DNA of 64,000 nucleotides from Botryllus schlosseri (lineage: Eukaryota), in assembly GCA_051294905.1 (NCBI GenBank), contig CM119372.1:32986001-33050000 (forward strand), read 5' to 3'. Numbering within the stretch: position 1 is the first letter of the stretch; each line of letters starts with the position of its first letter. A program made the position numbers and the translations under genes. The notes under the pieces were generated by a model. The model did no database searches. It was not told where the DNA came from and saw nothing but the letters and a program-made list of their open reading frames with translations. Positions 9,898 to 47,017 of this stretch are shown here, piece after piece.

Positions 9898-11871
9898 ATG
9901 ACCGACCTCAACTTGAATGAGGCCGCGATTTGTTGTGATTGTATTCTACGCCTCCAACCGTCATCTCTGCGAATCGCCTTCAGCCAATTGTGCGAATATC
10001 TCAACGCAACAGTATGGGCCATCCTCTGCAAGCATTTCCTCCAGATAAAGTTCCTCTGCGATGGCGACATGGAAGCGATATCCCGAGCTTCGCGGCTACA
10101 CAGTGCTTCGCAATCGCAAGAAATGTTACTCCGGCTAGAGAAACGGAAAAATATGACAATCGGGATGTTGTTACGGCATGTGCGATGTGCTTTTGATGAC
10201 TCTCAATTTAAGTGCGTCGTGTCCTTATTCAGTCCGTTGCACACGAAAACGTGCGCCGTCTATTCCCTGACAGCTCAATATTTCGATCCAATCTCGCTGC
10301 AGCCTACACCTGCTACTTCTGCAAATTTGAACCATTTACGACAGTGTAATTCACTACCAGCACCAGTCAGGCAAACACAACATCAGGGTCACGTTCATGG
10401 TAATAGTTACTGCCCAAGCATTGCGCACAATGGCAACGTGTCTTCAAATTTTAATTCATTACAACTCGAAAGCATGAATAACCTTTCCGACCCTTTCAAG
10501 CCGTATTTGGTGATAACACAACACCCCAAAAGCGTATCTCTTCCGGGAGGTGACGATATAATGCTAAAATGCACTGCAGAAAGCGATGCGCCGGTTAAAT
10601 ACTCTTGGAAAAAGAATGGCAAATTATTAACCGGCTGTACCGGGAAGCTGTTGATGATACCCGATGTTCGACATGATGACAGCGGTGTGTATTTGTGTGT
10701 AGCGAAAACGGATACTTTGGAAGTTGTTTCGGACTCCGCCAATGTGACGATTGATGATGCGAACGCCTCCCATGTTGCAATTATGCAAAATTTTGAAACG
10801 CCGGGGTATTTCGCAACAAAAAAGGTGGCTTTACTTATCGCGAACGAACAATACAAGTACAACCCAGTATTGTCGTCAGCATCGAATGATGTTCTAGCCA
10901 TCGCCCGGACTTTGAGAGAGCTCGGGTTCAAAACAATGACTCTCGTCAATCTGAAATTGGATGAAATGGTGACGGCGGTGGAGTTGTTTTGCAAAAGTTT
11001 GATAGACGGGGCCTACTGTGTAACGTACTTGGCCGGTCATGGTTTCGAAAATGACGGCCAAAGCTTCATCGTGCCAGTTAATGCCCCTGTGAATTACACC
11101 ATGGAGCATTGTTTTTCAATTAAACAAATGATCGAAAATATCCAGTCAGCACGAGACTTGAATCTCGCCGTGTTTTTACTTGACGTGTGTCGGAAGAGAT
11201 TGAAACGTAGCGACGGATCTGTGAGACCGATGCCTTCATACAAGAAATCCGGCAATTTCGTGATCAGTTACGCAACAATGGAGCATGGAATGGCGTACGA
11301 AGTTAAAGGGCATGAACTTGGCGTTTACGCTTCAAGTTTAGTGAATCATCTCAAAAAAGACAAACGAGTCACGAGAGTAGTTGAATTGGTACACAGCGAT
11401 ATCTATAGGAATAGTGTTACGAACGGTAACCAGCGGCCTGAATTTAATTCCAATATGTTTGAGGACAGGAAATTAACCGATCCGTTACATTCGCCCTGCG
11501 GACAAAACGAAGAAATTTTGGAAAACAAAAAGTGGAATCTAATTCACGTTGGCCAGAAACCAAATCTTTATATCTTCGAATGCGGAGTCGACGTCGTATT
11601 GCATAAGACTTCTCCGTTTTCAAATCAGTTCCTGCTAGAGGCCGCGTTCGAATCTGGCAACACTCCACCTCTCAACGTTTTCAACGTCTGCATAACTCTA
11701 AAAGGACACAGTAATGCCGCCCGTCAAAAGATATTGATCGAAAACATTCAACGTTTAAGCAACAGAGAAGTGACCATTGAAATACAGTTGCGATCTTCCG
11801 ACGCTAATGTCATCGATCGTTATGAAGACTCGATTTACATTCCGTTTGTGGATTGGTGGAAACAGTCCTGA
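9898..11871 (+). CDS. MALT1: MALT1-like paracaspase (death-domain-like N-terminus, Ig domain, caspase-like C14 domain), single-exon CDS
   Basis: 657-aa ORF. Ig domain (ITQHPKS...LKC...YSWKKNG...DSGVYLC), ATKKVALLIANEQY, catalytic YLAGHG (H381) and LDVCRK (C431). Confidence 0.93.
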   Translation: MTDLNLNEAAICCDCILRLQPSSLRIAFSQLCEYLNATVWAILCKHFLQIKFLCDGDMEAISRASRLHSASQSQEMLLRLEKRKNMTIGMLLRHVRCAFDDSQFKCVVSLFSPLHTKTCAVYSLTAQYFDPISLQPTPATSANLNHLRQCNSLPAPVRQTQHQGHVHGNSYCPSIAHNGNVSSNFNSLQLESMNNLSDPFKPYLVITQHPKSVSLPGGDDIMLKCTAESDAPVKYSWKKNGKLLTGCTGKLLMIPDVRHDDSGVYLCVAKTDTLEVVSDSANVTIDDANASHVAIMQNFETPGYFATKKVALLIANEQYKYNPVLSSASNDVLAIARTLRELGFKTMTLVNLKLDEMVTAVELFCKSLIDGAYCVTYLAGHGFENDGQSFIVPVNAPVNYTMEHCFSIKQMIENIQSARDLNLAVFLLDVCRKRLKRSDGSVRPMPSYKKSGNFVISYATMEHGMAYEVKGHELGVYASSLVNHLKKDKRVTRVVELVHSDIYRNSVTNGNQRPEFNSNMFEDRKLTDPLHSPCGQNEEILENKKWNLIHVGQKPNLYIFECGVDVVLHKTSPFSNQFLLEAAFESGNTPPLNVFNVCITLKGHSNAARQKILIENIQRLSNREVTIEIQLRSSDANVIDRYEDSIYIPFVDWWKQS

Positions 11872-12873
11872 CGTCGGCTTTTGGTCGATTGTGGCACTGT
11901 CTCATGCTTCACCACTGTGACGCGTTTATTTGCCAGGCATTACCGGAGGTGGTCACTGGGTCAGTTTTAAATACTTGTACCTAGCCTACTCTTAATGGAT
12001 AATCACTTAGCTTTTGTGTGCTTGCAGACTGCTTCCGCTGAACGGTTTCAAAACTTCATACTTTTCACACTTTAGATTTTGTTTAGTGTAAAGTAGTTTA
12101 AGGCTATGTTTGTGTCACAGCGACTGAATATATATTTGAAATTGTGGCTATTCGTAGTGTTTTTTTGTCGCAAAGATGCACCAGCCATTTCAAAAGCAAC
12201 CACCTCGGATTACATGCTGAAAGTAATTGACCCCTTGATCAAATCTACATTTTCGAGCTGCCTAGTTGAGTACTATTAAAGCCTTTATTTTGTACTTCGA
12301 TTTGAAGTAGTTTGGACATGTCTTTGAAATCATTACTTCTTTTTGTAATTGAGCAGGAATTTCCAGTTTTACTTCTACTCCAATTCTTACTACTTTATGT
12401 TGACCACCTCTGGGCTTCACATACAATCTTTCGATGACTATCAACTGTCCTCGAATTTATCTTGTTTACCGTGCTGCTACCTCTTTGTCTCGGGTGCTAT
12501 GGGGAACGTATTGCATCATTTACTATTTCTACATGGGCTTTATGACCTTTGACGGCTGAGTGAGTCGATTATGTGTCAAGCGTTGGTTGCTTAATCGGGC
12601 ATCATTCCTAGGTAACTTCACGGGTGGACACATATTTGTTAATTTTCCGCTGTCTGAAACTATAGCCTATTATGCATTTTGCAACTTTGGGAAATATTGG
12701 CATGGCAATGGGTGTACTTTTACGGTACCGTAGTTGCTGTTTTTAGGCTGCAGTTGACTCGACAATTTCGTATCCTTTCACAGCAGCCCTGTTATCATTA
12801 TTTCTCGTATTTGTGATTTATTTATTATGAACCAAACTAACTTGGTGCCATTAACTTTCAACAAGAGACACTT

Positions 12874-14604
12874 GGGTAATTTCCTGCCAAATCAACAAGG
12901 GGGTTGCACCAAGGTTGGAGAATTTATATGAGATTTGGCACACTGGCTGATGTAGCTTTAGACAGGCCAAATCCAAATTTTTTTTTGAAAAATTCTGAAA
13001 AAGTACCAAGTGATGATGCTTCAAAGTTTGCACATTTTCCTTGTCACACTTCATTGAACACTGTCAATAATTTTTTCAATGTCATAATTTTAAAGGTAAA
13101 AAGCCGTCAGCGTGGCTGAAATTTGGGGACATGATGCTACTGCTATCCAAGAATTCTTAAATTGATGGCCCAAACATTTCAGAGTATGTTATCATAGAAA
13201 ATAATGTCACCAAAGACTCCTACTGCATGTTTTGGTACCGAAAGTTTACACTCCCATAAATAAAAAGGGGAAAAATTTTAGAAGCCTAAATTCTGGAAAA
13301 ATAATCTTGAATATATTGTCTTTCATTTAATATTGATTCAATTCATTAATTTCCAACTACACCAGTAAAAAACTTCAAATTAATAATTGGATTAGATAAA
13401 CAATGAACTAAAACTTTCAAGGCATTGTTCACTGTGATGTCACAATGCATGGACTGTTAAAGGAGGCTGAATGGAGTAAACTGGCCATGGGAATTAAAGT
13501 AAAGTTGTGGCTGAGTAACTAGTCCAATTTTAGTGATTGAGTGACTTTATTGTCTTAATTTCAACAGGTAAATAACTCATTTGAATGCATAGTTAGAAAG
13601 GTGATGTCTCAGCTTGAAAATTGCAGTATTGGAAGAAACTTGGAAGAAATTTGCCACAAATTACATTTTACCGCAAAAACCGGGTTGATAACTGTGCCAA
13701 GCTTATTTCATTGGCCAGCAAGAGAAGATATCTGCTATGTCCCATTTTCTCATATACTTCTTTGCATTGACATGCCTTCAACTTTAGTGGCAGGCAGTAC
13801 AAAGTACATGAAGACAATATCCAAAAAATACAGAACATTTTCCATGGATTGGGCAATTGAGATGCTTTTGTACAAGTATGCTACGAGATCAATTTCATTT
13901 TTTTTTAGTTATGTGGTATATGATTAGAGAAACTGTTGATTCCAGAGCAATTAGCATGGGAAATTTGGATTGAATTACATGTATTCATTTACAGTAGGCC
14001 TATACAACCATTTTATGTGAATTTCGTTTGTTAAGCTTGTTTGGTTTGTGACGTCATAATTGGAAATGCTAAAAATTCACAGTAATCAGAAATTGTCCAA
14101 TTTCCACCTGATAATGTGGAAATTAATTGTTCATTTTTTGTAGCAAGGTAGAATGCTCATTGAAAACCATTAATTCATGAAAATGACCTTAAATTTTTTT
14201 TCCCCTTTTCAGATATACCACATTCCATTCAAGCTGTAGGAAAATGAGAAGCTGCTATTCACAAGCCTCACTAACATGATATAGACTTCAAATGGTTCAT
14301 TCAGCTCACTTTATATGTTAGTCAGGCTCTTGAGGAGATTTCCACCAAATTTTAGGGTTATCAAACTATCATAGTAAGATATATTGCTGTTTCACTGCAG
14401 ATTTGATGAAAATCACTGAAGCGTGACATGCAAAAAGCATGATTTTGTGAGGAGTGTAACTCGGTCATCAGATTGAATTTGAGAAAAAAATTTTGGATTC
14501 CCTCATGATAATGACAAAAGAATCAATGTGCCAAATTTCATAGCCATCCATTAACCTTGGTGCTCATCTGAAAATAAATTTGCTCATTTGGCAGGAAATT
14601 ACCC
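12874..14604 (+). mobile_element. Internally deleted Sola2-like DNA transposon
   Basis: TIR GGGTAATTTCCTGCCAAAT at both ends with further subterminal inverted similarity; 4-bp TSD ACTT; transposase-like remnant FHWPAREDICYVPFSHIL at about 13705-13760. Confidence 0.7.
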
Positions 14605-16535
14605 ACTTGGAAGTTCAGAATGTCTTCTTGCAATAGATGTTGAGATGAAATCAATCTTAATTGATTGGAGGGAGTAAAGAATCAATTTTCAGTGCCTTGC
14701 TTGATGATTACAATCGATACTTGAACTACCCGGCTCTAGTAATAATGCACTTTTTCCGTGTCTTGTCGTTTCTATCGCCATTTATCCCTATGTTGATTCA
14801 CTGTTTAGTACACACCCCACTGACGCAGTTGCAAGCAATGACCCGACTGCAGTATTACATTGCTTTTGACATCTTCGCCATACTGATGGCTCGCTGTAGT
14901 TCTGTGGAGTGTGTTCAGCTATTATCGCTTTCTCTCAAATGAGCCATTGTAAGTATTAGTGTCTGTGTCGTAAAATATGCGAGGTACTTATTTGTTATTG
15001 CCACAAATTTTCAGTTTAAGTATTCTTATCCTTATTTAAGAGCTTCGAATTGAATAGCCTGCTTTCTTCAATTGGTCGTACAATGTTTCATTGTGGTCAA
15101 TCTAAACGCCTTATTTGAATATTATCTAATCTTGACCAATTCACATCTGCTGTTATAATGTTGCATCTTGCCGGAATAGATCTGTGTCCTACATGTATGG
15201 TTTGATTATCTTTCGAGAATGATACGGTACGACATTGAGATAGCCCGAAACTAATCAGACTAAATTACAATTTTGCCTCAGGATACTCAGAAAACTATTT
15301 AATATTAGAATATGAGTGCACGGTGGCTACTGTTTCATTCTGATGTGATATTTGCTTGCTACAATATAGGAGAGTGGTATCAGCACTGTTACTCTCTAGA
15401 CATCCTATTCCAAGAATGTGACAACCATACTGATCATTAAACTGCATAATATGAAACCTCACAGTGACAGGAAACTAGATCGAAGTCGTTCAAACCTCCC
15501 ATTCGCATGCTAACACCATTTCTTATTTGAGCAAGCCAACTCTCAAACGTACCAAATGCACAGAAGCTCTCGCTTTCTTTATTTCCCCATATGATGCTTG
15601 GGAATACAATCCATTATAATAAATACGAATGCAATTACAGGCGTGGTGAGGATCGTAAAACAAATGCATGATTGCTGTAAAGGGACAAAATGTTGTCAAG
15701 ATGAGCTACACAATCTGTCCCGGCTATGTTTGTTCATTTTGTATTACATTCTTACGACAATTCAAGTTAAATTTAGGTCATGCGTTAAGACTTCTTTAGT
15801 AGTATGCATCGCTATGACATAGTCACTTCATGACATAATGAGATACGGTATAGAACAGTTGGTATCAATCTTATGTATGGTTTTCGCGGGCCCCTTCTGG
15901 ACAGTCATGTCACACGGACCCCCAAAGTTTTAGTTGAAGTATTTTGCAACCATCATCTATCTGTCTTGTTTCAACAAAACATCTCTAAACGACATGTTTG
16001 TATCAGTAGGCTATTGGCAATTTTGCAATTAAAATGAGTTCGCTCAGTAGGATATTTCGCCTCAGAAGGTCATTCTGTTGATGAGAGTCCTGACGGCCTG
16101 CCTCATGATTTCTCTAATTTAAAGAAACACAAATTAGGTCATCAACCAGTTTGCAAATTTAGAGATTTCGCGGACCCCCGGTTGAGAAGGATATCCCTGG
16201 GGTATGAAAGCATCCGAGGAGAGCGCGAAGCCGCCTGTCAGAAATGATGTTTCGGCAATAATACTAGTTACATTTTGATTTTAAATGTCATAATTACATC
16301 GTAACATCCGTACACCGATGCTAGATTTACATCCAGCTCAAAATTATTGCTAAACGTGTAGTCTGGATTTCATATTGAGGAGTTACTTGATCAATGGTCA
16401 TAACTAGGGCAAGTGTTTGCAACTTTTTTGTACAGCTTCCTAGATACTCAGATTCTATGTACTATGATGTTTTAAGCTGTTTGGAGGGATTTTTTACTGG
16501 AATGTAAAGGACTTGAGTTAAAACATGCTATAGAT

Positions 16536-17733
16536 CAGGGGTTCTCAACCCGCGGGCCGCATGCGGCCCACAGACGATTCTTTTGCGGCCCGCGACATCT
16601 TTCAATATAATCACTACTGGCCCCGTATTGTTATGGAAGACCGATGTGTCACATTTGTCGAAGAACAGTTGTTGTAACAAAGCCTAGAAGCTTGAAATGA
16701 TAGCACGATAGTTTCATCTGGAGTTATACATATCAAACGTTGCTAGCTTGGTTTCAAGCCCAGCAATCCATATTTCGAATCATTTTTAAAATTGCCGACG
16801 ACGTGACAGGCGCATTGTTCAAAATTGCTTGGAATATCGCTAAACCCAAGAATCTGCTAAAGAAGGTATGACTTCAATAAAACTTTAACGTACTGTGCGA
16901 ATATTCGCTGTTTCCGGAACTTAAGCAGCAAGTCTTACATCACCTGACAAATTTCGAAGCTACAGTTGTCTGATTCAACAGTCACCAGACGAGTAACAAC
17001 GATATCAGTCGATCTTTTATCGCATGTTCTGTAACACGTTGCCACGTAGACTACTTTAGCCTATAGCATTGGCCCTGTCCATCGATGCAAAAAGTGCACA
17101 CACATTGCATAGCTAATTATCCAGGGGCTTTTTATCAGAGTGAGCATGGGCATATTTCCAGAGGAAATGCTGACGGGGCGAACGTGGAAAGGGGACCAGG
17201 ACATCAATTTGACAAAGCTGACTTCTGCAACTATTGGTGTAGGGTTCCAGCCATGGAAGGAAAGGAGGAGAGTTGATTGATTTGCTCAGAAATGACCCCC
17301 CAACGTCTTAATTCTTCTCATATCACTGAGAGCTCAAAGTGATAATGACCTCAGTAACGAAAAAGTCACCGTAATTTTATACTTGCTCGCTCACGCATTG
17401 AAACAGAGAGTTCGGTTCTCTTGTGGTGGAAGGGTTTGAAGGGTGCATATACTATACCGACATGGCAACGAATGGAATGTACGCTCCATGAAGGGATTTA
17501 CTTGCGCCACTTGAAGATCGATATTCTCACAAAAAACAGCAACTGCAAACTTACGAACGCTCTCCATTAATGCTTTAGAATGCATAAAAACGTACTAAAT
17601 GCCCGAATATGACTGCTAAATAGGCCTAAATTTAATAGTAGCCCACAAGTACATGGTGATAATGTTCTGCGGCCCGCAGCGTCTTTTAGTGTGAAAATGC
17701 GGCCCGTTATACGAGGGAAGTTGAGAACCCCTG
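16536..17733 (+). mobile_element. hAT (Charlie/Buster-like) deletion derivative
   Basis: TIR CAGGGGTTCTCAAC / GTTGAGAACCCCTG; TSD CTATAGAT/CTATAGAC; GCGGCCC subterminal motifs; decayed transposase-like fragments inside. Confidence 0.85.
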
Positions 17734-18025
17734 CTATAGACTATTTGTAGTATGATTCTATTCTATTCTGCAAGCAGGAATTTCAACTACCCCTGCCAAG
17801 CACGACCGTGGCAAGAACAATAAGGTATATAGATCGCTTTATTAATTCTGTCGTTAAATTTTGAGATAGTTTCCCATTTCATGAACGCCCAGACGACACC
17901 GCCAAAAAATGCATTTTCACTGGGTCGCCTTTTTTAGACACTGGGTCGCCAAGAGTGAGTTCTTCTGCAATGCCTTGTGTCAAGTTATACAAAGGAACCT
18001 TGCGAGTATCTCATACACTAATAAC

Positions 18026-18989
18026 CAGTGTTGGGATCAAGTCACTACCTTCGAGTCACGAGTCATCTCCAGTCATTGCACATTTGATTCGAGTCAAGTC
18101 AATCGATTTTCAAGAGTGACTCGAGTCAAGTCAAGTCACTCGTTTTTTGGAGAGTCAAGTCAAGTCACGAGTCAAGTCACAATCCAAGTCAAATTGAATT
18201 TTTGAAGTATACGAGTGATGATTGAAAGTCATTTACATTTTGCTAGCTGTGTGAAAGACGGATTAATTGATCATTCATCTTGATTCAAATAACGAATATA
18301 GTTATAAATATACATGCAAAAAGACGCTGTATCCCTCACGCACACGTAGCACTGCTAATAAGATAAGGAAGTAACTGTACAGCTACATGATACAGTCAGT
18401 TATTATCATCCAAAATATAGGACCTAATGCGAAGCTTCGAGATTGATATGGTACAATAGCCTACACTACCCGTTTACACATCCGTGAGAATATAAATGCA
18501 CTTGCACAAACTATATTTGTTCGATTTAAATCATACAAGAGCAGGGTTGGTTAATATTAGCACTGCGCAACGTAAGCATCGAGCCGTCTAAGAAACGGAG
18601 ACACATTGCTATTTAGATTAATCTTCTACTATTATTTCGACAACGTAAGCTGTGATCGTTTAGTTGCGGTCAATGTATATGTGATGTAACAATGGAGGAT
18701 CAGTGTAACGTAGAATCGGTGAATGACTGGTATCTCTCACAAGTGACACCGGCGTATCTCGAACAATCCGGACATATATAAGATACAGTGATTTATTCGA
18801 CAGCGTTTACTTGATGACTTGAAATTAACTCGTAAATTTTACTACGAGTCACGAGTCAATGCCCATTTTTGAAGCTCCGAGTCAAGTCAAATCATTTTTC
18901 CAAAGTGACTCGAGTCAAGTCAATTCCTACGAAAAAGTTGACTCGAGTCTGACTCGAGTCAAGTCATGACTCCAGTCATCCAAACACTG
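18026..18989 (+). mobile_element. Non-autonomous hAT element, GACTCGAGTCAAGTCAA family, copy 1
   Basis: Termini CAGTGTTGG...AAACACTG; TSD CTAATAAC/CTAATGAT; homologous to 19144-20903 and 26623-27590. Confidence 0.85.
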
Positions 18990-19314
18990 CTAATGATGCA
19001 ACAAAAATTATAAATGCAACTTTTGTTCAAATTAAGTGCAAATTTCTCGCAATTTTAGTGCAACAAAAACGTGCCCTAGTCATAACCTTCCATTCCATCA
19101 AACTATACGTTGGGATCGCAAACATTCTGGTTGCTCTTTCTAACAGTGTTGGGATCAAGTCACTACCTTCGAGTCACGAGTCATCTCGAGTCATTGCACA
19201 TTTTGACTCGAGTCAAGTCAAGTCAATCGATTTTCAAAGATGACTCGAGTCAAGTCAAGTCACTCGTTTTTTGGAGGTGACTCGAGTCAAGTCAAGTCAA
19301 GTCAAGTCACGAGT

Positions 19315-21702: not shown

Positions 21703-22995
21703 AATAATCAGTTTTGGGCTCGTGTTAAGCGTCTCCAACGTAGGTGGTCGTGGGCGTCTTCAAGCGACAGCCCGAGTTGCGCTAGATCAGTCTCCATTGT
21801 CGAGCGCCATGTTTTCCGATTCCAGCCACCTCTGCGCCATGGCTCCGTGGGAATGTGATTGATGATGGCGGCGACTGGTTGCTCGTCTTGATGCCGCACT
21901 ATAGATGGCCGATTAGGAGGAAGCGTCGTTCAGCTGCCAGTAGCCGGCATGGGACCGTTCCTGTGAGTTCTCGCAATGCATTCGTGGATATAAGCTCCGG
22001 ATGGTGAATGCCGAGTGCATAGCGGAGGAGTGCGTCGTAGTTAGCGTTGAGATTCTTAGCCAGCTTCTCTGTCAGCGTGAGTGCCTCTATTCCGTAGAGA
22101 AGAACCTGCTCGACAGTGGCACGGAAGATACGGGTCTTGAGCTGGGTTGAGGCACTTGAATGGAAGAGGCTATATGTAGCCGTCTTGCCGCGCCCCAGGC
22201 CTTTGCTCGCCTCGCCTTGGGCGCTTTTCCAGAGTCAGCGACGTCAATACCGAGGTATACAAAACTCGTTACATACTTGAGATCGATTTCTCCCAGTTGA
22301 ATTGGTGTCGCGTTCTCCGGTAGAGCTGGTACGGCCAGAACCTCAGTCTTCTTGGCGTTGATCTGGAGGCCAACAAGAGCGGCGGCCGCCTCTAGCTGGT
22401 TAATGAGGCGCTGTGCCGATGCGGTGTTCGGGGCAAGCAAGGCTAGGTCGTCTGCGTAGGCAAGAATACCTACGTGGATTGCCTCGCGAGTCGTACGCTT
22501 GCGCGTTCCTTGCCGTGGCCGCCATTCAAAGATTCAAAGAAGCTCGTATTATCCGGAAAGGCCGTTCGTAGCACGAAGTCAAGGATGACCACGAACAAGA
22601 ATGGTGCCAGGGTGTCACCTTGAAGCACACCAGCCGAAGTGTTGAAATCTCCGCTTGGGCCGTCATCTGTTCGGACTCGCGCTCGTGTGTCAGTGTAGAG
22701 GCCCATAATGGCGTACGTTATCACCTCAGGAATTCCATTGAATCTGAAGATCTCCGCCATGGCTGGGCGCGAGACCGAGTCGAAGGCTTTCGCGAAATCA
22801 ACGAAGACGGCCACAACATTCTTTTTGTGTGAGCGGCAGGTGTCAATGATTGTGCGCAGTGTCAAGATGTGCTCTGTTGTACCGCGAGATGATCGAAATC
22901 CATTCTGAGCATTCAGGAGCTTGGTAGAGAGTTGCTCACGTATGCGAAGGAACAGTACTCGGTCGAACAGCTTGGCAGCGGTCTGCATCAATGAG
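21703..22995 (-). mobile_element. 5'-truncated RTE-clade LINE reverse transcriptase remnant
   Basis: QNGFR, FVDFAKAFDSV, GVLQGDTLAPFLF, YADDLALL, GLQINAKKT and FVYLG motifs, with frameshifts. Confidence 0.88.
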
Positions 22996-23803
22996 CATTG
23001 TGGAGTATTTCGAACGATTATTTACGATCGTAGTTTGTAACAATTGATGACACAGTTATTGTCTTCGAGGGCAAATCAGACAATAAATGACTACAAAAAA
23101 CTAGCTGAGTATGGAATAAAGATGCAGCAATTAGCCGATGCTAATCCCTATTATATTTGCAAAATTAACATTTATGCAGGAAAACAATCTGAGTTCAAGT
23201 CGTCAAAAGTCAAAATCAAAAATTCCGCCTTTGTAGAACGCAGCATATTTGTGTCCTTGATTTTGTGCGGCACATATACCGACTCACGATACACATACAC
23301 ACGATCTGTATATATGCATACCAGAAGTTCATGATGTGCTTAGGCATATGCCGCTAGAGAAGGAAGGCGCAAATATAGCCCTTGTAAGGCTTTCCAAGTC
23401 TGTTACCACCCCTCTCGGTTTAGAACCCCTAACCTATACTCAAATTAGTGATAGAAAATACTAACATGATTATTTATAAGTCAAAAGATATAACTATACT
23501 CTAAAAAGAAAACAAGGGCATGGTGATAATGTAGAAATGGAAGCGATCATTGTTTAATACTTCTAGCTAGTAACTATCACTAAAACAGAATTAAACTCGA
23601 GGATTTATGGGAAAGTGATGAAACTGGTATGGCATATTTTTGTCCTTGATATTTGTGCAGCACATACACCGACTCGCGATACACATACACACGATCTGTG
23701 CATTTGCATACAATGAATGCATGATGAGCTTCGGCATATGCCGCTGGAGAAAGAAGGTGCAAATATAGCACTGTAAAAGGCTTTCCAAGTCTGGTACCAC
23801 CCC

Positions 23804-31397: not shown

Positions 31398-34300
31398 TAG
31401 GGTTGTTCAAAATTTGGAAAATGTTTGGAATTCTGCGTGTCCATCGCTTATTCTTTAGATTATTGTTAAAAAACAATAATGGGCTTGAAAGAAGCTCCCA
31501 GGAAAGCCGCTAACATTTGTCTAAATGCGTTTGAAAGTCGTTGTTGAAGAGTGGGCGGGCAACCGACAGCAGAGGCGGGCAATCACGAAACCACGGTTCT
31601 TGATTCGGTAATCGGCTAAGCTTCACTGATTACTGCAACAGCTGACTCGGATTCGGGAGCTTCGCTGAATTGAAAGTCTGTTTTGCTGAGGTAGAGTCTG
31701 TTAGTAGCGGTTGTGGTTCTGTACAAGCGCGTTGTGTGTTGATGAGTCATTAGTAGTACTGTAACACGTGTTCTTTGAATGCATCACAGTCGATAGCAGT
31801 AGTTTATGCTTTGGAGCAACAATAGTGCAGTCATGGCAGAGGCAAAACGGCGAAAGATTGCACACATGCCGCAGCGAAGAACAAGATCCAAATCTGAGCA
31901 GTACTTGGTCGGATATACTTGCGATTACATCTGTGGCTCGAGATTACCTACTATACGAGAAGTAATGAGTTACTTGCTGCATCTGAAAGAGCATTGTCCT
32001 CAGTCAACCCCTACTCATGAACTATGTACTGTGGTGGTGGATGATGTAATGACAGTGTGGAAAATGGCGAGAATTGCGACAATGCAGAAATCACATGTGG
32101 TGCGATCACATGAAAACCTGCACGAAAGATGGCGTGATCTGAAGAAGAATACGAAACAGGAAAGTGATTCCAAAGGTAAGAGGAGAAAATTCACTGATGA
32201 TTTGGACAAGCTGTGGGATATTGGAAGTAGAGATGCCATACCAACAATAAAAAATGACATTTATCTATCACATGAAAGAAAGCTTGAAGACATTGCAATT
32301 TATGAAGATCAACGGCAATCTCGCCAGTCAATAATGTTGGGAAGAGACAAAATTCTGGCTAAAGACCTCAAAAAGAAAACAGCAGCCATTGCAGATCAAA
32401 CTGTTGAAAACGTTTCACACGACTCAAGTTGTGACTATGTTGTTTTAGCATCATCGTCATCTTCAAAAGAGGGTGACAGTTTGAGTTCAAGTTCTGACTA
32501 TGATGCTGATGTTGGACTTGGCACCTCGACCCAATCCATTAAACTGATGGCACCTAAAAATATTATGAAAAATATGCATGTTTCCCAAGCTCTGGATCGA
32601 TTGCAAGTAACTGACAACGATGCAACGATGCTGATGGGAGCATTTATTAAGGCTTGTGGAGGAGATATAGCCATGTTCTCCCTGTCAAGATCTTCAACGA
32701 AGAGAGCCAGGGAAACAAATCGCCTGGAAATATCTCAGGACATTTTGGAAAAATTTGCCGAAAATAGACCACAGCATGTTGCCATTCATTGGGATGGAAA
32801 GCTCACAGAGGATAGATTAGGAAATCGATATGAAGCTTTGTCAATTGTTCTATCTTGTCAACCTCAATACTCGGAAGGAAAACTACTTGGAATTCAGAAG
32901 ATACAAAATGCGGCAGGTCAGACACAAGCTGAAACTACTTTCGACATAATTAAAAAGTGGGATATACAAGATGCTGTAACAGCTTTGATTTTTGACACCA
33001 CAGCAAGCAACAGCGGCTGGAAGAAGGGTGCAGCGAAGATCCTTGAGGACCTCCTAGGAAAGAAGGTTTTTTACCATGCGTGTCGGCACCATGTGTATGA
33101 GCTAGTAGTCAAAGACGTCTGGAAATGTTTATTTGGAAAAGCAACAACCGGACCAAAGAACACATGGTTTGCCCACCTTAAGAAGAGCTGGAGCAGTCTT
33201 GACAGAAAACAGCAATTCAAGACTCTGACTATTCCTATATGCTTTAAAGAACGAGCAGCAATGACAGTTGAGAACTTCAAGCTACTACTCGCCAGAAGAT
33301 TTCTTCACACGGGATGACTACAAACAATGTGTGACTAATGCTCTTGCTCTTCTCGGTGCAGATGGAGATATACATCATCACAAACCTGGTGCAACACACC
33401 ATGCAAGGTGGATGGGCACAATTCTGTATGCTCAGAAGATGTTCATGTGGGCTGATCAGTTACATTACAAATCTGAAGAAGTGGAACTGCTGCATCGCTT
33501 CAATTTATTTTTAGTTCTCTTCTATATCCCTGCCTGGGTTGCTTCCAGCATCGGTCGTGATGCAGCCGGTAATGACTTGAGATTCATCCAGGACATGTTG
33601 AGTTACAAGGAACATGATGAACAAGTTTCCAAAGCTGCTTCACAAAAGCTTTTAAAGCATGACTGGTATATCGTGGAGGAAACCGCTGTATATGCCTTGT
33701 TTTCGCCGAGTGAAAGCAATGAAACCCGAGAAAATATGGCAAAGACGCTCCTACAGGTAGAGCGAACTTCAAGTTTCAGGAGAGGCCCGCCCTCGTTGAA
33801 TGCAACTGTACGCATCAACAAGGACACTACTTTGTCTGATTTTATTGGGCCACAGTCGTGGTACATATTTGATGTTTTTGAATGCTCTGGGGCGTGGCTA
33901 GCTCAACCGGTTGATGTTTGGCACTTATCAGATTCCTACACCAGAATGAGCTCCTACATCAGTTCTGTCAAAGTCGTTAATGATGCCGCAGAACGAGGTG
34001 TAAAGCTAAGCACAGACTATGCTGCAATCTTGACTGACAATGAACAACAAAGAGACAGTCTGCTTCAAGCTGTGGAACAGCATAGGAAGACAGTTGGAGA
34101 CAGCAGGAAGTCAACTCTAATCAAAAGCCTGTAATCTGCAACTTGTGCCTGACAATGCAACGCTAATCTGCAACGTACTTTTTTAATGTCTTTTGTAAAT
34201 GGTGCTTTTCGCCTTCATTCAATTGTGAATAAAAAGTGTAATATGCGTTTGTTTATGGGTGAGACGTCGACCAGTCATAACAAGTACTACTGAGATGTTG

Positions 34301-38224: not shown

Positions 38225-38313
38225 GTAGTTAGTTGCTTTACATTGTAATTGCCGTTCACCCTATTTATTTCCTGTTTCGGTTGAATTTAGTCCTTTAGTA
38301 TTTTGCCTGTTAC

Positions 38314-39600
38314 CAGAGGTGGTCAAAGTAGCCAAGAAAGCTACTCAAGTAGAAGTAGAAGTAGCGACGAATAAATCTACTCAAGTACGAGTAGAAGTAC
38401 TTCTTCAATGAGCCACCTAAAACTACTTGAAGTAGAAGTAGAATTGGCCGACTTTAAATCTACTCAAGTAAGTAAGTAGTTTTGAAAACAGTCTTAATTC
38501 GTTCGCATGGACTGTCAAAAGCTGCGAATTGAGCTATGCGGCAGGTGCAGAGAGCTTGATTCGCATTGATGCATACAAAGAGGTATCAATATTCGACTGA
38601 ATATGCATTGTTTCGCATCATGGGATGCAAATTATAGTATTGATATGAAAGTGCGATACTAACCATTTGTTTACTAGAATACCCCGTTTTTAGAGAATAT
38701 CATGGCATGGCGCCCTACCCCATATTATAAGGCGCCAAGTTTAGGCGAAGAGCAATACGTTGAAGTTGTATCGGATATGGTTTCATCACTTTGCGCGATT
38801 AGTATACGTTAATAACAAATATTGATGATCTTAAAAGTTATATTTATTAGTGTAGCTTTATTTTCGGAAAATAGAGGCATTACTACACTATCTTTTGTGC
38901 TTCAACATGTATGTCCTGTAGACAAAAGAACTGAAAGTAATTACTACTCAAAGTATGATACTCGCAATTGAAAGTGAAATACAAATACCACTTCTAAAAA
39001 GTGGAAAATATACTCCATGTCTTTTGTCCATAAAGCTTCAAGTTTATCTGCTAAAATAGGTGTAACGTTGAAAAAAAGCTGGATTTTCCATATTAGCAAG
39101 ACACGTAATGGCCTGCTAGATTACGATATGATAGGTAATTGCTAGATTGCGAAACGGTAGTTTCAAACGTTATGGCGGGCCATATTTACTGTGATGAAAT
39201 ATTTGATATGGGCGACAATGCGGTGTGAGAGGAATCAAGCAATCCGGTGCCTAAATATTATTCCCTGATACTTTCTTGAAAACATATTTGTCAGTCCATT
39301 ACTACTATGCGCGAGGCGCAACAAAATTTCTGGGCTTCACTTGACTTTCATGAATATTAAATGTTGGTACTACATGAAAACAGCCCCGAAATTCCTCAGG
39401 CTATCTTTCGTATTGGGGGATTAAACTACTTCTACTTGACAAACTGAAAATAGCGAAAAGTAAGTAAGTAGATCACAAAATTTTATGAAGTAGAAGTAGA
39501 AGTAGAGAAAATCAGATCTACTTGAGTAAGTACCACAAGTAGAGGAAAACTACTTGAGTACTTCCAAAAAGTAGAAGTACTTCGTTACTGACCACCTCTG
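38314..39600. mobile_element. Non-autonomous hAT element with AGTAGA/CTACT subterminal repeats
   Basis: CAGAGGTGGTCA/TGACCACCTCTG ends; exact TSD CCTGTTAC. A decayed relative lies at about 40300-40725. Confidence 0.9.
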
Positions 39601-40797
39601 CCTGTTACTCATTTGATGTTCCAACATACCACTATTCGGCCTGCTTACATTTTTTTAATATTTATTTATGACGCGAGACTCGAATTGAACAATGCTTAAT
39701 TAGTACTCCATCAATGCAGCTATGATCCGCGGGACTCCCAAAGGATCGTATCGCTGCAGCATGTATTATATTTTTTTGCAATTTTGTTCAATAAAACTGT
39801 ATATCTGTCTATAGGCACCCTGCGGCCTGCATTCGCATTGCATGAATAGAATGTGCGTAAATGCCGATTATACAAGTTTTTCGTGTTGACAAACTTGCGC
39901 GATAAATTAGCGAGGATCGCTGCAATCAATCACCGAATTTCCCTCGAGTACAAACGGCAAACCAAGGCAGCAGGAGATCCGTGCTGTTGTGCAGTGCAGA
40001 CGACTCTCGCTAATTGGCAGCGTGCAACACTGATAATACGAATTGCTGGGCACGATGGCTGAATGTGATACACGATTGAAAACAAACCTGAGAAAGGTGT
40101 GATTTCAAGTTTTATTTCGAGGGAGATTTTTTTCAATACTTGTCCCCATGCATAATGAGCATCCCCGATTTTAGGACAAAAAATCGGTAAAATTTTGCGC
40201 ATTATGCATGGAAAATTATGGTAGAGATCAGAAAAAAATCTCAGGTTATTGAATAAATTTTGTCGAAAACATCTAAAATGTCCAAACTCAGCTGCCATTC
40301 ATAAAGCCTACTTGACCTAGATTGGATTAAAAATCAATTTGCTACTCCTACGCCATTCAGAATAGACTCTTATTCGCGATTTTATAGTAGGAGTGGCTGT
40401 TCCCAAGACAGGTCAAACTACTTCAAGTGGCAGTAGAAAAGAAAGATCTGTAAAGTACTAAAGTACTTGACCCACAGCATCTAATAACAAATAAGTGTAA
40501 TTCTCAAAAATATATTCAGTTGTAGACGAACAAGACACTCGTATAGGGGCTTTTTCGTCCAAAACTATTTTCTACTTTACAAATTTCAAAGCGTAAAAAG
40601 TTAGTGTTGCATAAAAAACTGTCGAAGTGGAAGTAGCAAAAAAACACAACCAGTCAAGTAGTGCAAGTAGCGAACCTACTCGAGCATTCAGCAGAAGTAG
40701 AAGCACTCAGTCACTGACCAATACTTAACAAACTTCACCAGAGTTTTATAGCATTTCAGTGGATTTTACAGTGTAATATGCAGGACATCAATTGCGA

Positions 40798-41451
40798 TTA
40801 TTGTCCAGAATAAAAAAGGCTCAGCTGCCTGTGATTGTCGGGGTTTCTGCGAGCGATCTTAAACCTGAGCAGCAGCTCTACGTATTCCGATTTATACGAC
40901 TTGTCCAAATCGAGGTAAGCGTCCGGCTTCAGTCGCAATAACTCCGCGATAATATCCGAGAGAGGCCGTGACGCATCATCTGGCGGCGGAAAATGGCGTT
41001 TCACGAAACTGCTCAGTCCCTTTTCCAACTTTTTACATCGAGCCGTGTTGTTACTAGCACCCGGTGAAAAGTTCTTTCCTTTGCATTGCGCAATATCCGT
41101 CGTCAAGACATCTTGCTCCCGTAGAAACAACGTCTTATCGTCAACGTCCGTCCGTAACTTTTCGACGTACTGCTCGCAATAGTCCAAGTATTTTGTGGCG
41201 GAAGATATCTCATCTTCGAGTCTTTTCGACAGAATATCGGCGTTGACGATCGGGTGATCGAGCGGTTGCGTGGGTTCGATACGCTCGAGCATTTTAGTCT
41301 CGTATTTGAGCAGAACAAGGTGACGTTCTCTAACATCGCCAGCGGCCCCTACTCGGTTGGCATCGCGTGTCGGTGACATCGCGTCTAACTCTTCGGCGAG
41401 AGAGATGCATTCCTCCTTCAAATCATTTTCGACTGCTTCCAAGTCAGACAT
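40798..41451 (-). CDS. CENPK: Centromere protein K (CENP-K), single-exon CDS
   Basis: Coiled-coil N-terminus; C-terminus LSSFVKRHFPPP...PDAYL...YVELLLRFKIARRNPDN matches the CENP-K pattern FL..HFPLP...DPYV...YVELLLR.GIA.RHP. Likely start is MSDLE at 41451; the ORF extends to 41499. Confidence 0.85.
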   Translation of the reverse strand: MSDLEAVENDLKEECISLAEELDAMSPTRDANRVGAAGDVRERHLVLLKYETKMLERIEPTQPLDHPIVNADILSKRLEDEISSATKYLDYCEQYVEKLRTDVDDKTLFLREQDVLTTDIAQCKGKNFSPGASNNTARCKKLEKGLSSFVKRHFPPPDDASRPLSDIIAELLRLKPDAYLDLDKSYKSEYVELLLRFKIARRNPDNHRQLSLFYSGQ

Positions 41452-41848
41452 CTTCGGCGACCTGCATGAATCAGTCGGTGAATGAGCGAGGATTTGCATT
41501 CGTTTTCAAAAGATGACAGATCAGAACAGTGGTTCTCAACCTTTTTCGACTGATCGCCCCCTTGACAACCTCGACACAAATTTTCGATATCGCTTGAGAA
41601 ACTGGGTGGCGAAAATAACAAAGGTAGCAATTGGGGGCAAAAATGCTAGAACCTTCATTCAGATATATTTAATTACCCGGCAACTGGATACCGGCAAAAA
41701 GCAGAAATGAAAAACGTGTTTTTCTGGAATTGCCGCGAAAGTTGACTAAAAGGAAGGTAAACTCGCCACAAACTATCCTCAGATACCAAGATTTTCAGGG
41801 TTCGCCGCGAAAAGTTGCACAATCATGTTGGAAACATATCTCTTAGAG

Positions 41849-42318
41849 CAGGGGCGGCCAACGTTTTTGGCCAAAGGGCCACACGAGATTTACGATCCAT
41901 TGGCCGGGCCACTTGAATGTTGATGTTCCGTTTTTAGTCGTCCGATAGTAGCGAACTGGATTAGATAACGGTGAAAACAGAACGCATCAAAATCGATACC
42001 AATTATGTCATTAAAAGTCAGCGTGTATTCATGCCATAACCGCGTGAAGCGCGAAAAATTTTCAAAGTTAATGAACGAATTCGTTCAATAATAATGTCAC
42101 TTGCATATATTGCGGGTCACCTCTCGGCTCATTTGGCACTGATAATTTAGTCATTAACATCCCAAATTTCACTGTCAGGCTAATCAAATTTTTTGTTGGT
42201 CATACAAGTTCACAATGAATTACCCCGGCAATTTTTTTATATAATATAACTTATTTCCAGAATTACCTTGTGGGCAGCTCAAAACCATCTCGCGGGCAAC
42301 GGGGGTTGGCCGCCCCTG
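41849..42318. mobile_element. hAT-Charlie-like MITE
   Basis: CAGGGGCGGCCAAC/GTTGGCCGCCCCTG; TSD TCTTAGAG/TCTTAGTG. Confidence 0.85.
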
Positions 42319-44952
42319 TCTTAGTGACAAGCGGCATATAATTTCAATCGACTCGAAAACATCGTCTGTCACTGCAAGTACCCAAATCATTGTGCCCAGA
42401 TCTACTAATTACCCACCCTATTCTTTACAGTTTATGTCATTCTCGATGAGCAATAATCAAGTAGGTAAGTCCCATACCTTCAAGCCAAAAGAAATCAACA
42501 AATATGATTTGCGTGAGCTGAATTGTCCCGATGGAAGGGCAATCGAAAGTCGTTACGAAGCCATTTATCGGGCATCAATTGACGTAGAACCAGTGTAAAT
42601 CGGGTTTGCTACAGACCGTGCTAGCTACTGATAAACAGAACTCCGGTAAGGATAATGCCAACATTTTTTTAAAACATGGTTTTCTACCTAGATTGTACTG
42701 TTGGCAAGGCTTCGAGATTGCTAGCATCTATTACCGGTTTGCGACGTCGAGTCTCATGCATGATGGCCCCACACATCGGTGATTGAGTACTGAGTCTATA
42801 ACATTTTCAAGTCCAAATCATGTTCCACAGTATTTAAGATTCAAATTTCAATGATATATGACTGAAATTTTTCGGAACATCGCTTGAAATTCAAAACCAT
42901 GGAGAATTGCTTGTCCAAATCTAGTTAGGCCTAAGTAAACGAGGTAACATATAAATCCACTTTTATTGTTGATAGACTTTGAGGGAACATTTTGCTTACC
43001 ATTAAATTGTAGAGGAATTCTTGTTTGCGTGCGATCAGCAGCGAAGATACATCTCGATAATTAAAAGTAAGCCTAATTCCACTACAACATAATACAACCA
43101 TCATCGATAACACCAAAACATGTCAGGTGATAAAATAGCAACAGCAGTAACCAGATTGAAGCCTATGATATCCCATTATAAATGTCGCGCAGTAAACAGC
43201 AAATAGGAAGAACGGACAAATGAAGTATACATGCTACAAGGTACTATTCTAATATAACACAGTCAATAAAGCGGATCACATAACCTACATCAATCCCTGC
43301 TACATAATAATATAGGCATATACAATTATACATACACGTCAATAACTAGGCCATTGAGCTTTCCAGAAGAATATATGACATCAAACACTGCTCAGGTGAT
43401 ACAAGGGCACAAGTTAAGTGTTCATGGGTTTGTTGCAACCTCATTAATTTTATAAATGATCAAATAACTTCTTTAAATATATTGTTACACAATATACAAC
43501 CACACAGGTATTCATGTTTTAGGCTGCTTGTGTTGCAATCTCGAAATCCAAAACACTGCAAAGCTGAACATGCTTGCATTTACTCAAACTCAGTTCCAGT
43601 TACGTTGTGACTTGGCAAATAAAAACCAAACCCACATCACAAGGTCCAGAAATCAATTCTATTCAGAAGATCGCTGAAAAGACCGACATCACAGGCCTTC
43701 TATATCCAAGGCTTATGAGAACTACGATTTACGAATCCTACCACATTCAAATCAGTCACCGTCTTCAAGACATTCATGAATGATATAACATAGTTCCCAA
43801 AAAGTCGCAAACATTCGTGAGATGAAGCTGAACTAGGCATTTGGCTACTATCCGCAAATTTTACAACGAACTTCGAATGCTGGGCTACAGAAATGCATGA
43901 CTAAACCATGATAATATATTCTAAGAATGAGATACAAAAAAACTGTAGATGAATATAGAAAATAACGAATGAATTGTCACGTCAACTACTAATAACGGGC
44001 TCGAAAATCAGAACCCAACGATGTTTACATGAGAATAAAATTTTTACACAACACAGCAATTACTCTTTATGCGATCCAATCTAACTAGGGAAGATTGCTC
44101 TAAATTACTGCCTGTAACACCTCTAAACAATATTGACCAACACCAAAGCTATACTTTCATTGGACTAATTTGTTTAGCTATGCAAATCGTACAAGTGATT
44201 TGAATTGTCGCAGACTTGCAGTACATTAGTTCAAGTTTTGTTTCATTCAAATGCTGAATAGACGACATTATGGCTTGGAGATGTTATTTTCCTTAGGGCA
44301 CATCGATTGATTTTCAATTACGCATAGTTGCGTGGAAAGAGTTGCACATCATTGGGCAACTAAGTCCATTTACATTTCCCCAGAAAGGCATGTAGCAACA
44401 GTCTATCAATCAATTCATATCTCCATGGTGTACTTGTACAGTGTGAGTAGATACCGGTACGGCCATATTATGGGCTACAAACAAGTACAACAGTTGCAAC
44501 TTACAAGACCAATTATTTTGAAGCAGTTATCGTCACCATAACTTGGAAGTCATATGACCCCATTTGCAGTCAAATACACGAACAAAACCTATTTATAATG
44601 TAAAGTTTTGTCGCCAAAATGTCAACGAGTTAACTCAAGTTGAACCACACCCTGCTGCATGGTAAATCACATTACCATACTGGTATCAGCAAGTCCCAAT
44701 AAAACTTACAGGGAAGACCTCGAAATAACGGAAAAGGAAATGACCTCGCTACAAGGTGGGTTTTTGCGGAAGGGAAAGGTAATTGCTAAGGACAACTGTT
44801 AATAGAGTTATGGTTCCTTATTAGGGGCAGAGTAAGAGTCTGCCATAGAACATGAGTTGATTGTTAGCAGTTTTGCCTTAAATAGATAAATTCATCTTTC
44901 AGTTCGCAAATATTCAAAATCTAAAAGATACCGTGTAACCAACACTCCAGAG

Positions 44953-45147
44953 CAATGTTCCCTCCAATTTTTGACGAGTCTGCGCACACTCACCAACTCA
45001 CTGCGTAGACACTTGGACAACAGTGCGTAACGACTAAATATAAAGGTCATCACTCCGGATTTTTTGCGCGCAACTTAGATTTTCTGTGCGCAGAGACCCT
45101 GTCGGCACTGCGCTTTTGCGCACGTGCGCAGCTTAGAGGGAACATTG
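44953..45147. mobile_element. Short hAT MITE downstream of endophilin B
   Basis: CAATGTTCCCTC/GAGGGAACATTG; exact TSD CTCCAGAG. Confidence 0.9.
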
Positions 45148-45970
45148 CTCCAGAGTATGTCAATATAACGAGCATGTCCATATACAGAAAGACAAACGTC
45201 TTGTGAACGAAATTATGGCTGACCCTGCCGTTTTAAAACAAGGGGCTAAAGACGCACATAAACGACCGAGTACCCTGACTTGCTGACTAATGAGCCAAGA
45301 ATTGGGAGAAAATTTCTGACTTCAAGTGCAAAATACCAATCCCGTCTCTTAGCAATGATTATAGAAGTGAAACACCGTGGACAGGAGGACACGAAAACGC
45401 CAAAATCCACAATCACATCCCCTTGCGGACAAGTTCTGGCCATATTAAACACGCTTTTTTTAATGTAATGTCCGGTGATATCAACAGGCTGTAGGCCTAC
45501 ATCCAACTCATTTTTTCTATAATATGCTTATGCCGCGTACTCTATAGCCACGAAGTGAACGAGCATGACAGACCGTACGATTCAATATAGTGAATATAAT
45601 ATACAACCCTTCATATATCCAATAATAGCATCAGGCATATGTATATGCCTTAACTACAAAAAAAAAACGGGTTTTGTTTCAGATTTTAAAATCTACCGAT
45701 CTATGCCAATTCCACTTAAAACCTCATTTACCAAGTCTTTTCATACAATCGAAGCAATCTACACCGAGAAGCAAACTTGGGTTAATTAACACAGTTGAAA
45801 CCTCCACACATATCACCTACAAATAACGACACAGATTTAAAATCCCCCGCTGGCTGGCAGTGTCGGGGTACAATAACAACGACAGCCCCCGTAATTTGTT
45901 GGACAATAGTATACTTTTTGAAGTCAGTACGCACGAAAAGACGAAGAAATTCTGTCTAGGACAAAATCGA

Positions 45971-47017
45971 TTACAAGATTTCGATATAGTTCAACGGCAC
46001 TTTCCCTTTCAAAGAACGCCGTTCTCCCATCACAAAATCTTTATGCATATCAGGAACCGCAGTAACTGTTATGACTTCATCGGCAAGCAATGATAACTCT
46101 GTGGTGTCGGCAGCATCGTAGTCATACAGCACTCGGGCTTTGCGCACTCCTGTGAACGGCAGGCCGTCATTTCTGGGAATGATTGCATTCAAATCAATCG
46201 GGGACACGTCAGAGCCGCTGTATATTGAAGATGTGTCACCGACACTGTTCAATTCTCGTTTCAACTCTTGCATAACCTGATCGCAAGTGGCATGGTATCT
46301 GCTTTGCGCGTCAATGAATTCTTTCAGGCTTCGTAAGTGATGAGAGTGCGTGCTGCTTACGCCGTGAAGGAGTAATTTCGTGATTTCCTGCTGCCGATCA
46401 AATTCAGTTTGGGCCACGTGCAGGTCGCTTTCAGTCGCGGATTTCGCTTCATCGGATTTGGCTTTACGCGCACGGTTCTTGCAGGCATCCAAATCCAATC
46501 TTTTTGATTCCAGAGTTTTTCGTTCCTTCTGTATCGTCTTGCAGTCTCCTTCCAAAAAACTCGCCAATGGCTTTAGAAAATTCAAGGCTGCCGTATGCAC
46601 TAACGCCTTTTCCGCCTCGCCAAGCTTATTCTGTGCATGACCACAATTGATCAACGCTTTTCCATACGAGGTACCAGGCCCAAAGCCTTCGCCAGCTTCA
46701 ATCATGGTCGCGCCCAATATTTGTTGATTCGTGGGACCCTCAGACTGTCTACGGTCTAGCTTGTTGTAAACAAAATCCTTCATTCGTAAATTAGGATTAG
46801 GCTGCAGCGCTATTTCCGTTTGCGCTTTCATTTTCTCGACCCATTGCTTGGTGTTGTCGAAACGCTCCAGTAAGTGTTCAAAATTAGCGTCATATTCCGT
46901 TTTTTCAGCACTACCCAATTTCTCTTCGGTGTATTGCAGTGCACGGCTTAACAATGTCGACGCATCGGACGTGATTTGTCTCACTCCAGAAACGGAAAAC
47001 TTGGATCGCAAGTCCAT
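45971..47017 (-). CDS. SH3GLB: Endophilin B (N-BAR plus SH3), single-exon CDS
   Basis: 348 aa. SRALQYTEEKLGSAEKTEYD, LQPNP, FGPGTSYGKAL, KRLDLDACK, FDRQQEITKLLL and SH3 RKARVLYDYDA...ELSLLADEVI...GKVPLNYIEIL. Confidence 0.96.
   Translation of the reverse strand: MDLRSKFSVSGVRQITSDASTLLSRALQYTEEKLGSAEKTEYDANFEHLLERFDNTKQWVEKMKAQTEIALQPNPNLRMKDFVYNKLDRRQSEGPTNQQILGATMIEAGEGFGPGTSYGKALINCGHAQNKLGEAEKALVHTAALNFLKPLASFLEGDCKTIQKERKTLESKRLDLDACKNRARKAKSDEAKSATESDLHVAQTEFDRQQEITKLLLHGVSSTHSHHLRSLKEFIDAQSRYHATCDQVMQELKRELNSVGDTSSIYSGSDVSPIDLNAIIPRNDGLPFTGVRKARVLYDYDAADTTELSLLADEVITVTAVPDMHKDFVMGERRSLKGKVPLNYIEIL

Follow-up and report, generated by a model that had tools for sequence, protein, structure and literature searches.

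The 64,000-nucleotide stretch of Botryllus schlosseri DNA analysed here (assembly GCA_051294905.1, contig CM119372.1, positions 32,986,001 to 33,050,000, hereafter called the window) carries three conserved host genes, for a MALT1-like paracaspase, CENP-K, and endophilin B, whose coding sequences (CDS) are each a single uninterrupted frame and of which no second copy was detected in the assembly. More widely, the genome is a mosaic in which about one third of the sampled core genes are intron-free and many others lie in several pieces. The preferred account, to which we give an even chance, is that such genes arose by retroposition followed by loss of the parental gene, with mRNA-derived genes left as the sole working copies. 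The phenomenon itself is already in print for the ascidian Ciona and hence is not a new discovery.

Under the standard genetic code, 12 ATG-started open reading frames (ORFs) of at least 150 aa were listed in the window and compared with Pfam, and host-gene domains were found in three of them. These are the three frames singled out in an original prediction made from the sequence by eye, and all are present and complete. Its assertion that the three genes lack introns in the coding region stands for all of them, except that it misplaced the CENP-K start and missed an intron in the 5′ untranslated region (UTR) of that gene. That these are all the host genes of the window can be said with less assurance, as Pfam scans of the other frames added only retroelement fragments, and short exons mostly escape such scans. 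Of the 162 stop-free frames of at least 70 aa, 12 overlap the three genes and were dropped; the remaining 150 yielded no further host gene by Pfam, the scan being poorly sensitive to short exons. Likewise, there was no Pfam match in 395 of the 412 frames of 45–69 aa (17 lie wholly inside the three genes and were dropped), again with low sensitivity to short exons.

A six-frame protein search of the whole assembly (495.5 Mb in 219 contigs), which the original prediction had proposed as a check for intron-containing parents, matched each of the three proteins once, at its own locus. Neither an intron-bearing parent nor a second copy was detected in these 495 Mb, with 2–9 candidates scored per query. 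Another proposed check, RNA coverage, came out in favor of an unbroken coding region for two of the three genes, endophilin B and CENP-K, both of which are covered without interruption by RNA-like contigs.

The paracaspase gene encodes a protein with Ig and Peptidase_C14 domains (Pfam, E 1.4e-26) that aligns with solved MALT1 caspase-Ig3 structures from the PDB (E 1e-46). Its catalytic residues H381 and C431 are invariant across the alignment of homologues, and the caspase-like domain, the His/Cys dyad, and the flanking Ig domains that define a MALT1-type paracaspase are all found by Pfam and PDB alignment. A death domain was not detected by Pfam in residues 1–200. The protein aligns from M1 to its C-terminus with all four homologues of 648–688 aa, three of which (648–657 aa) are about 61–63% identical to it, while a Styela clava MALT1-like protein of 688 aa is 45% identical. 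It is this collinearity with homologues that supports a coding sequence without introns. An AG just upstream of the ATG is a candidate splice acceptor.

The pre-ATG context of MALT1, gcttag/gtcgaagaATG (slash after the AG), resembles the proven CENP-K acceptor tgcag/gtcgccgaagATG (41452–41470). Common to both is an AG followed by GTCG…GAAGA, 8–10 bases before the ATG. The likeness may be due to chance or to a shared 5′-end signal.

For the other two genes, positions 39000–51000 were compared with the reads of one raw RNA run (X23), with RNA-like contigs of two separate studies (X1 and X8), and with a DNA-like set (X15). X1 is regarded as spliced RNA because it cleanly skips 1,538 bases bounded by GT..AG and because its depth is zero at 47421–47821, where that of X15 is about 82. 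The skip lies in CENP-K: record 1 of X1 joins 42998–43996 straight to 40189–41459, whereas record 9 of the DNA-like X15 is continuous across 41459–41558, and raw-read depth falls inside the intron. Judged by the contig junction, the exon begins at 41461. The ATG at 41499, taken as the start in the original prediction, falls inside the canonical GT..AG intron 41462–42999, and the spliced message bears an in-frame TAA two codons before the splice junction; translation therefore begins at 41451 and gives a protein of 217 aa. Thus, the coding sequence of CENP-K is contained in a single exon, yet the gene is not intronless and has at least one intron. The upstream exon shows a raw-read depth of 3–6 in X23 (43010–43811) and holds no frame of at least 70 aa and no Pfam match over 43000–43996. 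An AG at 44001–44000, together with 25 unplaced letters at the contig end, hints at another intron farther upstream.

The identity of CENP-K is less direct than its structure. The ORF of the original prediction (40798–41499, minus strand, 233 aa) matches the Pfam family PF11802 with E 3.9e-5, and its score of 23.8 bits is below the curated cut-off of 27.2. In an exhaustive HMMER search, the 217-aa protein matched four proteins. The closest homologue, P0126, is also exactly 217 aa long and 84% identical, and the three distant matches, P0127–P0129 (249–282 aa, E 2e-8 to 8e-5), are strong members of the Pfam CENP-K family (E 4e-27 to 2e-59). In addition, the C-terminus aligns with a solved CENP-K structure (E 0.0015). 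By way of these distant matches, the ORF at 40798–41451 is identified, indirectly, as a divergent CENP-K.

Endophilin B is recognized by a BAR domain (Pfam, E 3.7e-66) together with an SH3 domain. Among its 4,419 homologues, the best with a name is an endophilin-B1-like protein of Styela clava (74% identity), which places the window in a stolidobranch ascidian; identity to the proteins of Ciona, Clavelina, and Phallusia is 56–60%, and the alignment covers 100% of the Ciona proteins of 354–358 aa. The N-BAR domain, the C-terminal SH3 domain, and the nearest named relatives thus all agree with endophilin B. Record 4 of X1 runs through 45116–47027 without a joint and includes the entire coding sequence with at least 855 bases of the 3′ UTR; CENP-K is covered equally without joints over 40189–41459. 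Contigs from both studies (X1 and X8) end at 47027, 10 bases before the ATG, and an AG at 47033–47032 that follows a pyrimidine-rich tract upstream of this leader is a putative splice acceptor. Isoform X2 of the Styela clava endophilin-B1-like protein (P0003) matches up to …LSLLADEV, residue 315, then continues with 24 unrelated residues and is without most of the SH3 domain. The divergence after ADEV suggests a splice junction in Styela clava at a point that is continuous in the Botryllus window, so that Styela clava may still have a coding intron that the window genome lacks, an indirect pointer to the timing of the loss.

The intron content of the genome was sampled by scanning the assembly with six core Pfam families; the matches were grouped into loci by the analyst, and some fragments may be pseudogenes. 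The whole domain lies in one open frame in 16 of the 47 loci (34%), and the other 31 are split into pieces, partial matches, or lone fragments, many of them in 2–7 pieces. Single-frame loci make up four of the nine chaperonin genes (Cpn60_TCP1; in another the domain gives two matches inside a 775-aa frame, four are in 5–7 pieces, and the count leaves aside one lone fragment as well as a PIKfyve-like partial domain), four of about 17 Proteasome loci (one covers profile positions 3–153; the rest are in 1–3 pieces), and four of eight MCM loci, with frames of 789–972 aa (the other four are in 3–4 pieces). For tRNA-synt_1 the count is two of about six (three in several pieces, one lone fragment), for RNA_pol_Rpb2_6 one of three (two in several pieces), and for ATP-synt_ab one of four (three in 3 pieces each). 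All six single-frame loci that were rechecked encode complete multi-domain proteins in one ORF. MCM6 (821 aa) has its N, OB, P-loop, lid, and winged-helix domains, an RNA polymerase second-largest subunit (1,144 aa) has domains 1–7, and a class I tRNA synthetase (1,264 aa) has the GST_C, catalytic, and anticodon domains; the other three are a CCT subunit (538 aa), an ATP synthase alpha/beta-family subunit (514 aa), and a proteasome subunit (257 aa).

The original prediction had read three intron-free genes out of three as a measure of scale, which is largely an ascertainment effect: a reader without tools recognizes only uninterrupted ORFs, and multi-exon genes stay invisible, so the ratio is inflated. 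At a background of about one third, the chance of three intron-free genes in a row is about 4%.

The family scans also brought up several arrangements worth recording. At G000:C9:21387851-21392987, two chaperonin-family genes, both apparently unsplit, lie within 5 kb on opposite strands, and in one of them a 775-aa frame holds the domain as two matches, a pattern suggestive of about 200 residues inserted in frame. At G000:C6:26575532-26578284, on the minus strand, a single-frame proteasome gene lies about 1 kb upstream of a multi-piece proteasome gene on the same strand, possibly an operon-like arrangement of the Ciona type with the single-exon gene 5′-most. At G000:C13:2940718-2941341 (minus strand), a chaperonin-like partial domain is part of a 2,156-aa open frame, probably a very long exon of a lipid kinase of the PIKfyve type.

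According to the account preferred here, spliced mRNAs would have been reverse-transcribed in the germ line, and the cDNA copies would have been inserted at other sites, where each would have come by a promoter or a non-coding exon upstream; the parents, which still had introns, would then have been lost, leaving “orphan” retrogenes (retrogene replacement). An mRNA-mediated origin is proposed because introns have been cleared from whole coding sequences, parents are absent, many loci fall into two classes, and sources of reverse transcriptase are at hand. The occurrence of many loci at either extreme, one frame or many pieces, likewise points to mRNA-mediated conversion of whole genes and not to gradual loss of single introns. 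What is reconstructed here is the reverse transcription, the move to another site, the disappearance of the parents, and how old the events are; they are judged to be old since no poly(A) tract survives, and erosion of poly(A) is expected in old retrocopies. The suggestion in the original prediction that genes had been replaced wholesale by retrocopies is thus retained insofar as many genes appear to have been replaced by, or converted to, mRNA-derived copies; as a novelty it falls, this being already known for ascidians.

Several observations weigh against retroposition with parental loss. Among the marks of a retrogene, a coding region without introns on transcripts was found for endophilin B and CENP-K, and the lack of an intron-bearing parental copy in the assembly for all three genes, while a poly(A) remnant was not found within 3 kb downstream of the genes. 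As had been noticed before, the 3 kb that follow the stop codons of MALT1 and endophilin B contain no A-rich window (at least 15 A in 20); downstream of CENP-K the same scan gave a single AT-rich site, beyond the transcript end. No direct hallmark of a retrocopy therefore survives in the A-tract scan, target-site duplications not having been sought. The organism is expected to trans-splice its mRNAs, so retrocopies could carry a relic of the leader; no relic of a 16-base Ciona spliced-leader motif was seen near the three genes, and a scan of the window that allowed 3 mismatches gave one match, away from them, versus 1.78 expected by chance. The 5′ UTR intron of CENP-K is predicted equally well by recombination of cDNA in place. 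Finally, the orthologues of MALT1, CENP-K, and endophilin B in outgroups and vertebrates are taken to be multi-exonic.

In-place intron loss, in which cDNA of a spliced mRNA recombined with the original gene without relocation and without a duplicate, is a possible but less probable explanation. The retention by CENP-K of an intron at its extreme 5′ end (41462–42999) fits conversion by a 3′-primed, 5′-incomplete cDNA, and such a process would also account for the failure to find in the assembly any parental remnant of the three genes, or a poly(A) tract or other insertion scar. It is harder to reconcile with the clearance of whole coding sequences, in genes encoding up to 1,264 aa and at 16 of 47 loci, with few clear intermediates in the family scans. 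Retrogenes are known to gain 5′ UTR introns, and this is counted against in-place loss as an explanation of the CENP-K intron. Moreover, the single study devoted to this question in ascidians, that of Kim et al. (2014), known via papers that cite it, concludes by its title in favor of retroduplication and parental loss.

Much less likely is an operon of the Ciona type with the single-exon endophilin B as the 5′-most gene and CENP-K as the trans-spliced gene downstream. Endophilin B does lie upstream of CENP-K on the same strand, the space that separates the two is almost filled by transcribed sequence (X1 covers 45116–47027, 43986–44982, and 42998–43996), and in Ciona single-exon genes are 5′-most in 60% of operons, according to a passage in Satou et al. 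2008 (PMC2760879). However, the distance from the endophilin B stop to the CENP-K start is 4.5 kb, where an operon of this type would leave hardly any intercistronic DNA, and the exons of CENP-K are 5–10 times deeper than endophilin B in raw reads: the depth is 5–8 in the CENP-K exon and 3–6 in the upstream exon, as against 0.2–1.5 in endophilin B and its proximal 3′ UTR. CENP-K is therefore considered to have a transcription start of its own, and an operon was rejected on the distance and the unequal coverage.

It is barely credible that the three genes are dead or redundant retrocopies and that functional parents with introns escaped detection. An exon-by-exon search can indeed miss diverged parents, the more so with the few candidates scored per query. 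Nevertheless, the frames are intact and conserved along full-length homologues (84–87% identity for CENP-K and endophilin B, 61–63% for the paracaspase), two of the three genes (endophilin B and CENP-K) are transcribed and one of them (CENP-K) is spliced, and the catalytic residues of the paracaspase are invariant. The coding polymorphisms displayed for CENP-K (four synonymous, two non-synonymous) and endophilin B (one synonymous) amount to five silent versus two replacement changes, a small and selected sample, and the evidence for selection is thin. Least tenable of all is the lineage-wide loss of most coding introns entertained in the original prediction, which three recognizable window genes out of three and very long single-frame core genes elsewhere might suggest, and which is rejected by the 31 of 47 family-scan loci without a whole domain in one frame and by the canonical intron spliced within the window itself, in the 5′ UTR of CENP-K.

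An intron-free coding sequence is to be regarded as characteristic of many essential genes in Botryllus schlosseri, a large minority of them, and not of the whole genome. For annotation, this means that a reading based on ORFs over-samples the intron-free class and, as the CENP-K case shows, can put start codons inside 5′ UTR introns.

A bolder proposal, which we rate as rather improbable, is that in a styelid-like lineage mRNA-derived copies without introns took the place of about one third of the core housekeeping genes, in a genome that is rich in transposons and not compact, with acceptor AGs aiding their expression. If true, the replaced core would include the RNA polymerase second-largest subunit, MCM6, a class I tRNA synthetase, ATP synthase beta, CCT, and proteasome subunits, and the share of about one third would exceed the 15–20% of single-exon genes in Ciona, although the two figures are not directly comparable. 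The acceptor-like AGs 8–14 bases before start codons may then splice promoter-less copies onto upstream exons or a spliced leader, and such splicing could be the reason for the frequent success of replacement among tunicates. Were the share truly above that of Ciona, the genome would lend itself well to dating and explaining retrogene replacement.

The features of the window are collected in Table 1.

Table 1. Features located in the window, in order of position (minimum extents are given for the 3′ UTRs).
Feature	Position	Strand	Size or content	Evidence
Candidate acceptor-like context gcttag/gtcgaaga	9873..9897	+	AG ends 8 bases before the MALT1 ATG	read from sequence
MALT1-like type-1 paracaspase CDS	9898..11871	+	657 aa, one open frame	Pfam, PDB match, homologue collinearity, single copy
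Reverse transcriptase fragments	22090..23021	-		Pfam RVT_1
High-copy transposon gene, broken copy	31806..34134	+	503 + 240 aa	no Pfam match
CENP-K 3′ UTR	40189..40797	-	minimum extent	X1 contig record 1, down to 40189
CENP-K CDS, corrected start	40798..41451	-	217 aa, one exon	contig junction, upstream TAA, homologue length
CENP-K 5′ UTR intron	41462..42999	-	1,538 bases, GTAAGC...TGCAG	contig join and sequence reading
CENP-K non-coding upstream exon	43000..43996	-		same X1 contig as the CDS
Endophilin B 3′ UTR	45116..45970	-	minimum extent; runs into a high-copy repeat	X1 record 4
Endophilin B CDS	45971..47017	-	348 aa, one open frame	Pfam, homologues, unbroken contig, single copy
Endophilin B 5′ leader	47018..47027	-		X1 record 4 and X8 record 23, both ending at 47027
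LTR-retroelement pol fragments (integrase zinc finger, RNase H)	57376..58387	-		Pfam PF17921, PF17919

The genes lie in a setting rich in transposons, as originally described, with fragments of reverse transcriptase and LTR retroelements and with a high-copy transposon family. For the longer ORF of the broken copy (31806–33317), 92 matches are listed among 1,306 candidates, and many of them have an intact frame of 776 aa; the family comprises dozens of loci with such intact frames at about 81% identity, so it looks recently active. The clusters nearest to this gene consist of unnamed arthropod proteins, and there is a weak lead to domains of the FAM200/ZBED5 kind. Repeats of extreme copy number (X15 word depth of 1e5 to 8e5, about 80 in unique sequence) at 39401–39801 and 44614–45415 flank the CENP-K transcription unit, and all contigs break there.

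Two further sites in the window are of separate interest. At 50614–50646 (plus strand), 435 raw RNA reads carry loose letters resembling a template-switch oligo before 50614, and 384 run off past 50646; it looks like a candidate capped start with a 33-base first exon in a moderately repeated element (DNA word depth of about 3,000). At 4264–6977 (minus strand), there are three overlapping ORFs of 307, 336, and 419 aa without a Pfam family, and the 419-aa ORF bears three to four tandem copies of a unit of about 45 residues (…AAIQSEAKHPPPDDV.SYEACL.GEGSILKEDVIPGFNHLSDQLER…).

Literature searches found no published estimate of intron-free genes for stolidobranch ascidians, and the passages of the genome papers of Botryllus (PMC12448946) and Styela plicata (PMC12627437) reached by term look-ups hold no text on single-exon genes or exon counts. 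For Ciona, Zou et al. 2011 (PMC3155783) give 1,448 intronless genes in the annotation, and the retrocopies and retrogenes listed by Casola and Betran 2017 (PMC5470649) number 110 and 96, respectively. Kubiak and Makalowska 2017 (PMC5408686) name retroduplication with parental loss as a major mechanism behind the intronless genes of tunicates, and according to Garstang and Ferrier 2018 (PMC5803294), who cite Kim et al. 2014, retrogene replacement is apparently relatively common in Ciona.

The same paper on amphioxus SYCP1 (PMC5803294) describes a case close to the genes of the window: a multi-exon ancestor has given way to a gene with one coding exon, its parent has disappeared, and structure has been acquired in the 5′ UTR, along with local regulatory input. 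Relocation is demonstrated there by synteny, whereas here it is presumed. As for the single-exon genes of Ciona, Satou et al. 2008 (PMC2760879) put their share at 15% among non-operon genes and at 38% among operon genes, so that in both ascidians a sizeable minority of real, expressed genes is single-exon. Unlike the Ciona operons, endophilin B and CENP-K do not form an operon by the distance and coverage given above. The share found here, 16 of 47 loci (34%), refers to core families and that of Ciona to all gene models, so the two are not comparable directly, and the scale, about one third of sampled core genes against 15–20% of Ciona gene models, is the mildly interesting point.

The closest counterparts are the orphan retrogenes of Ciona, reportedly described by Kim and colleagues in 2014 (Dev Genes Evol 224:255; known by its title and from citations). 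The window genes differ from them in belonging to another ascidian order and to a genome that is about 3–4 times larger and transposon-rich, but share with them what characterizes the class: they are conserved, single-copy ascidian genes with a single coding exon and no parent.

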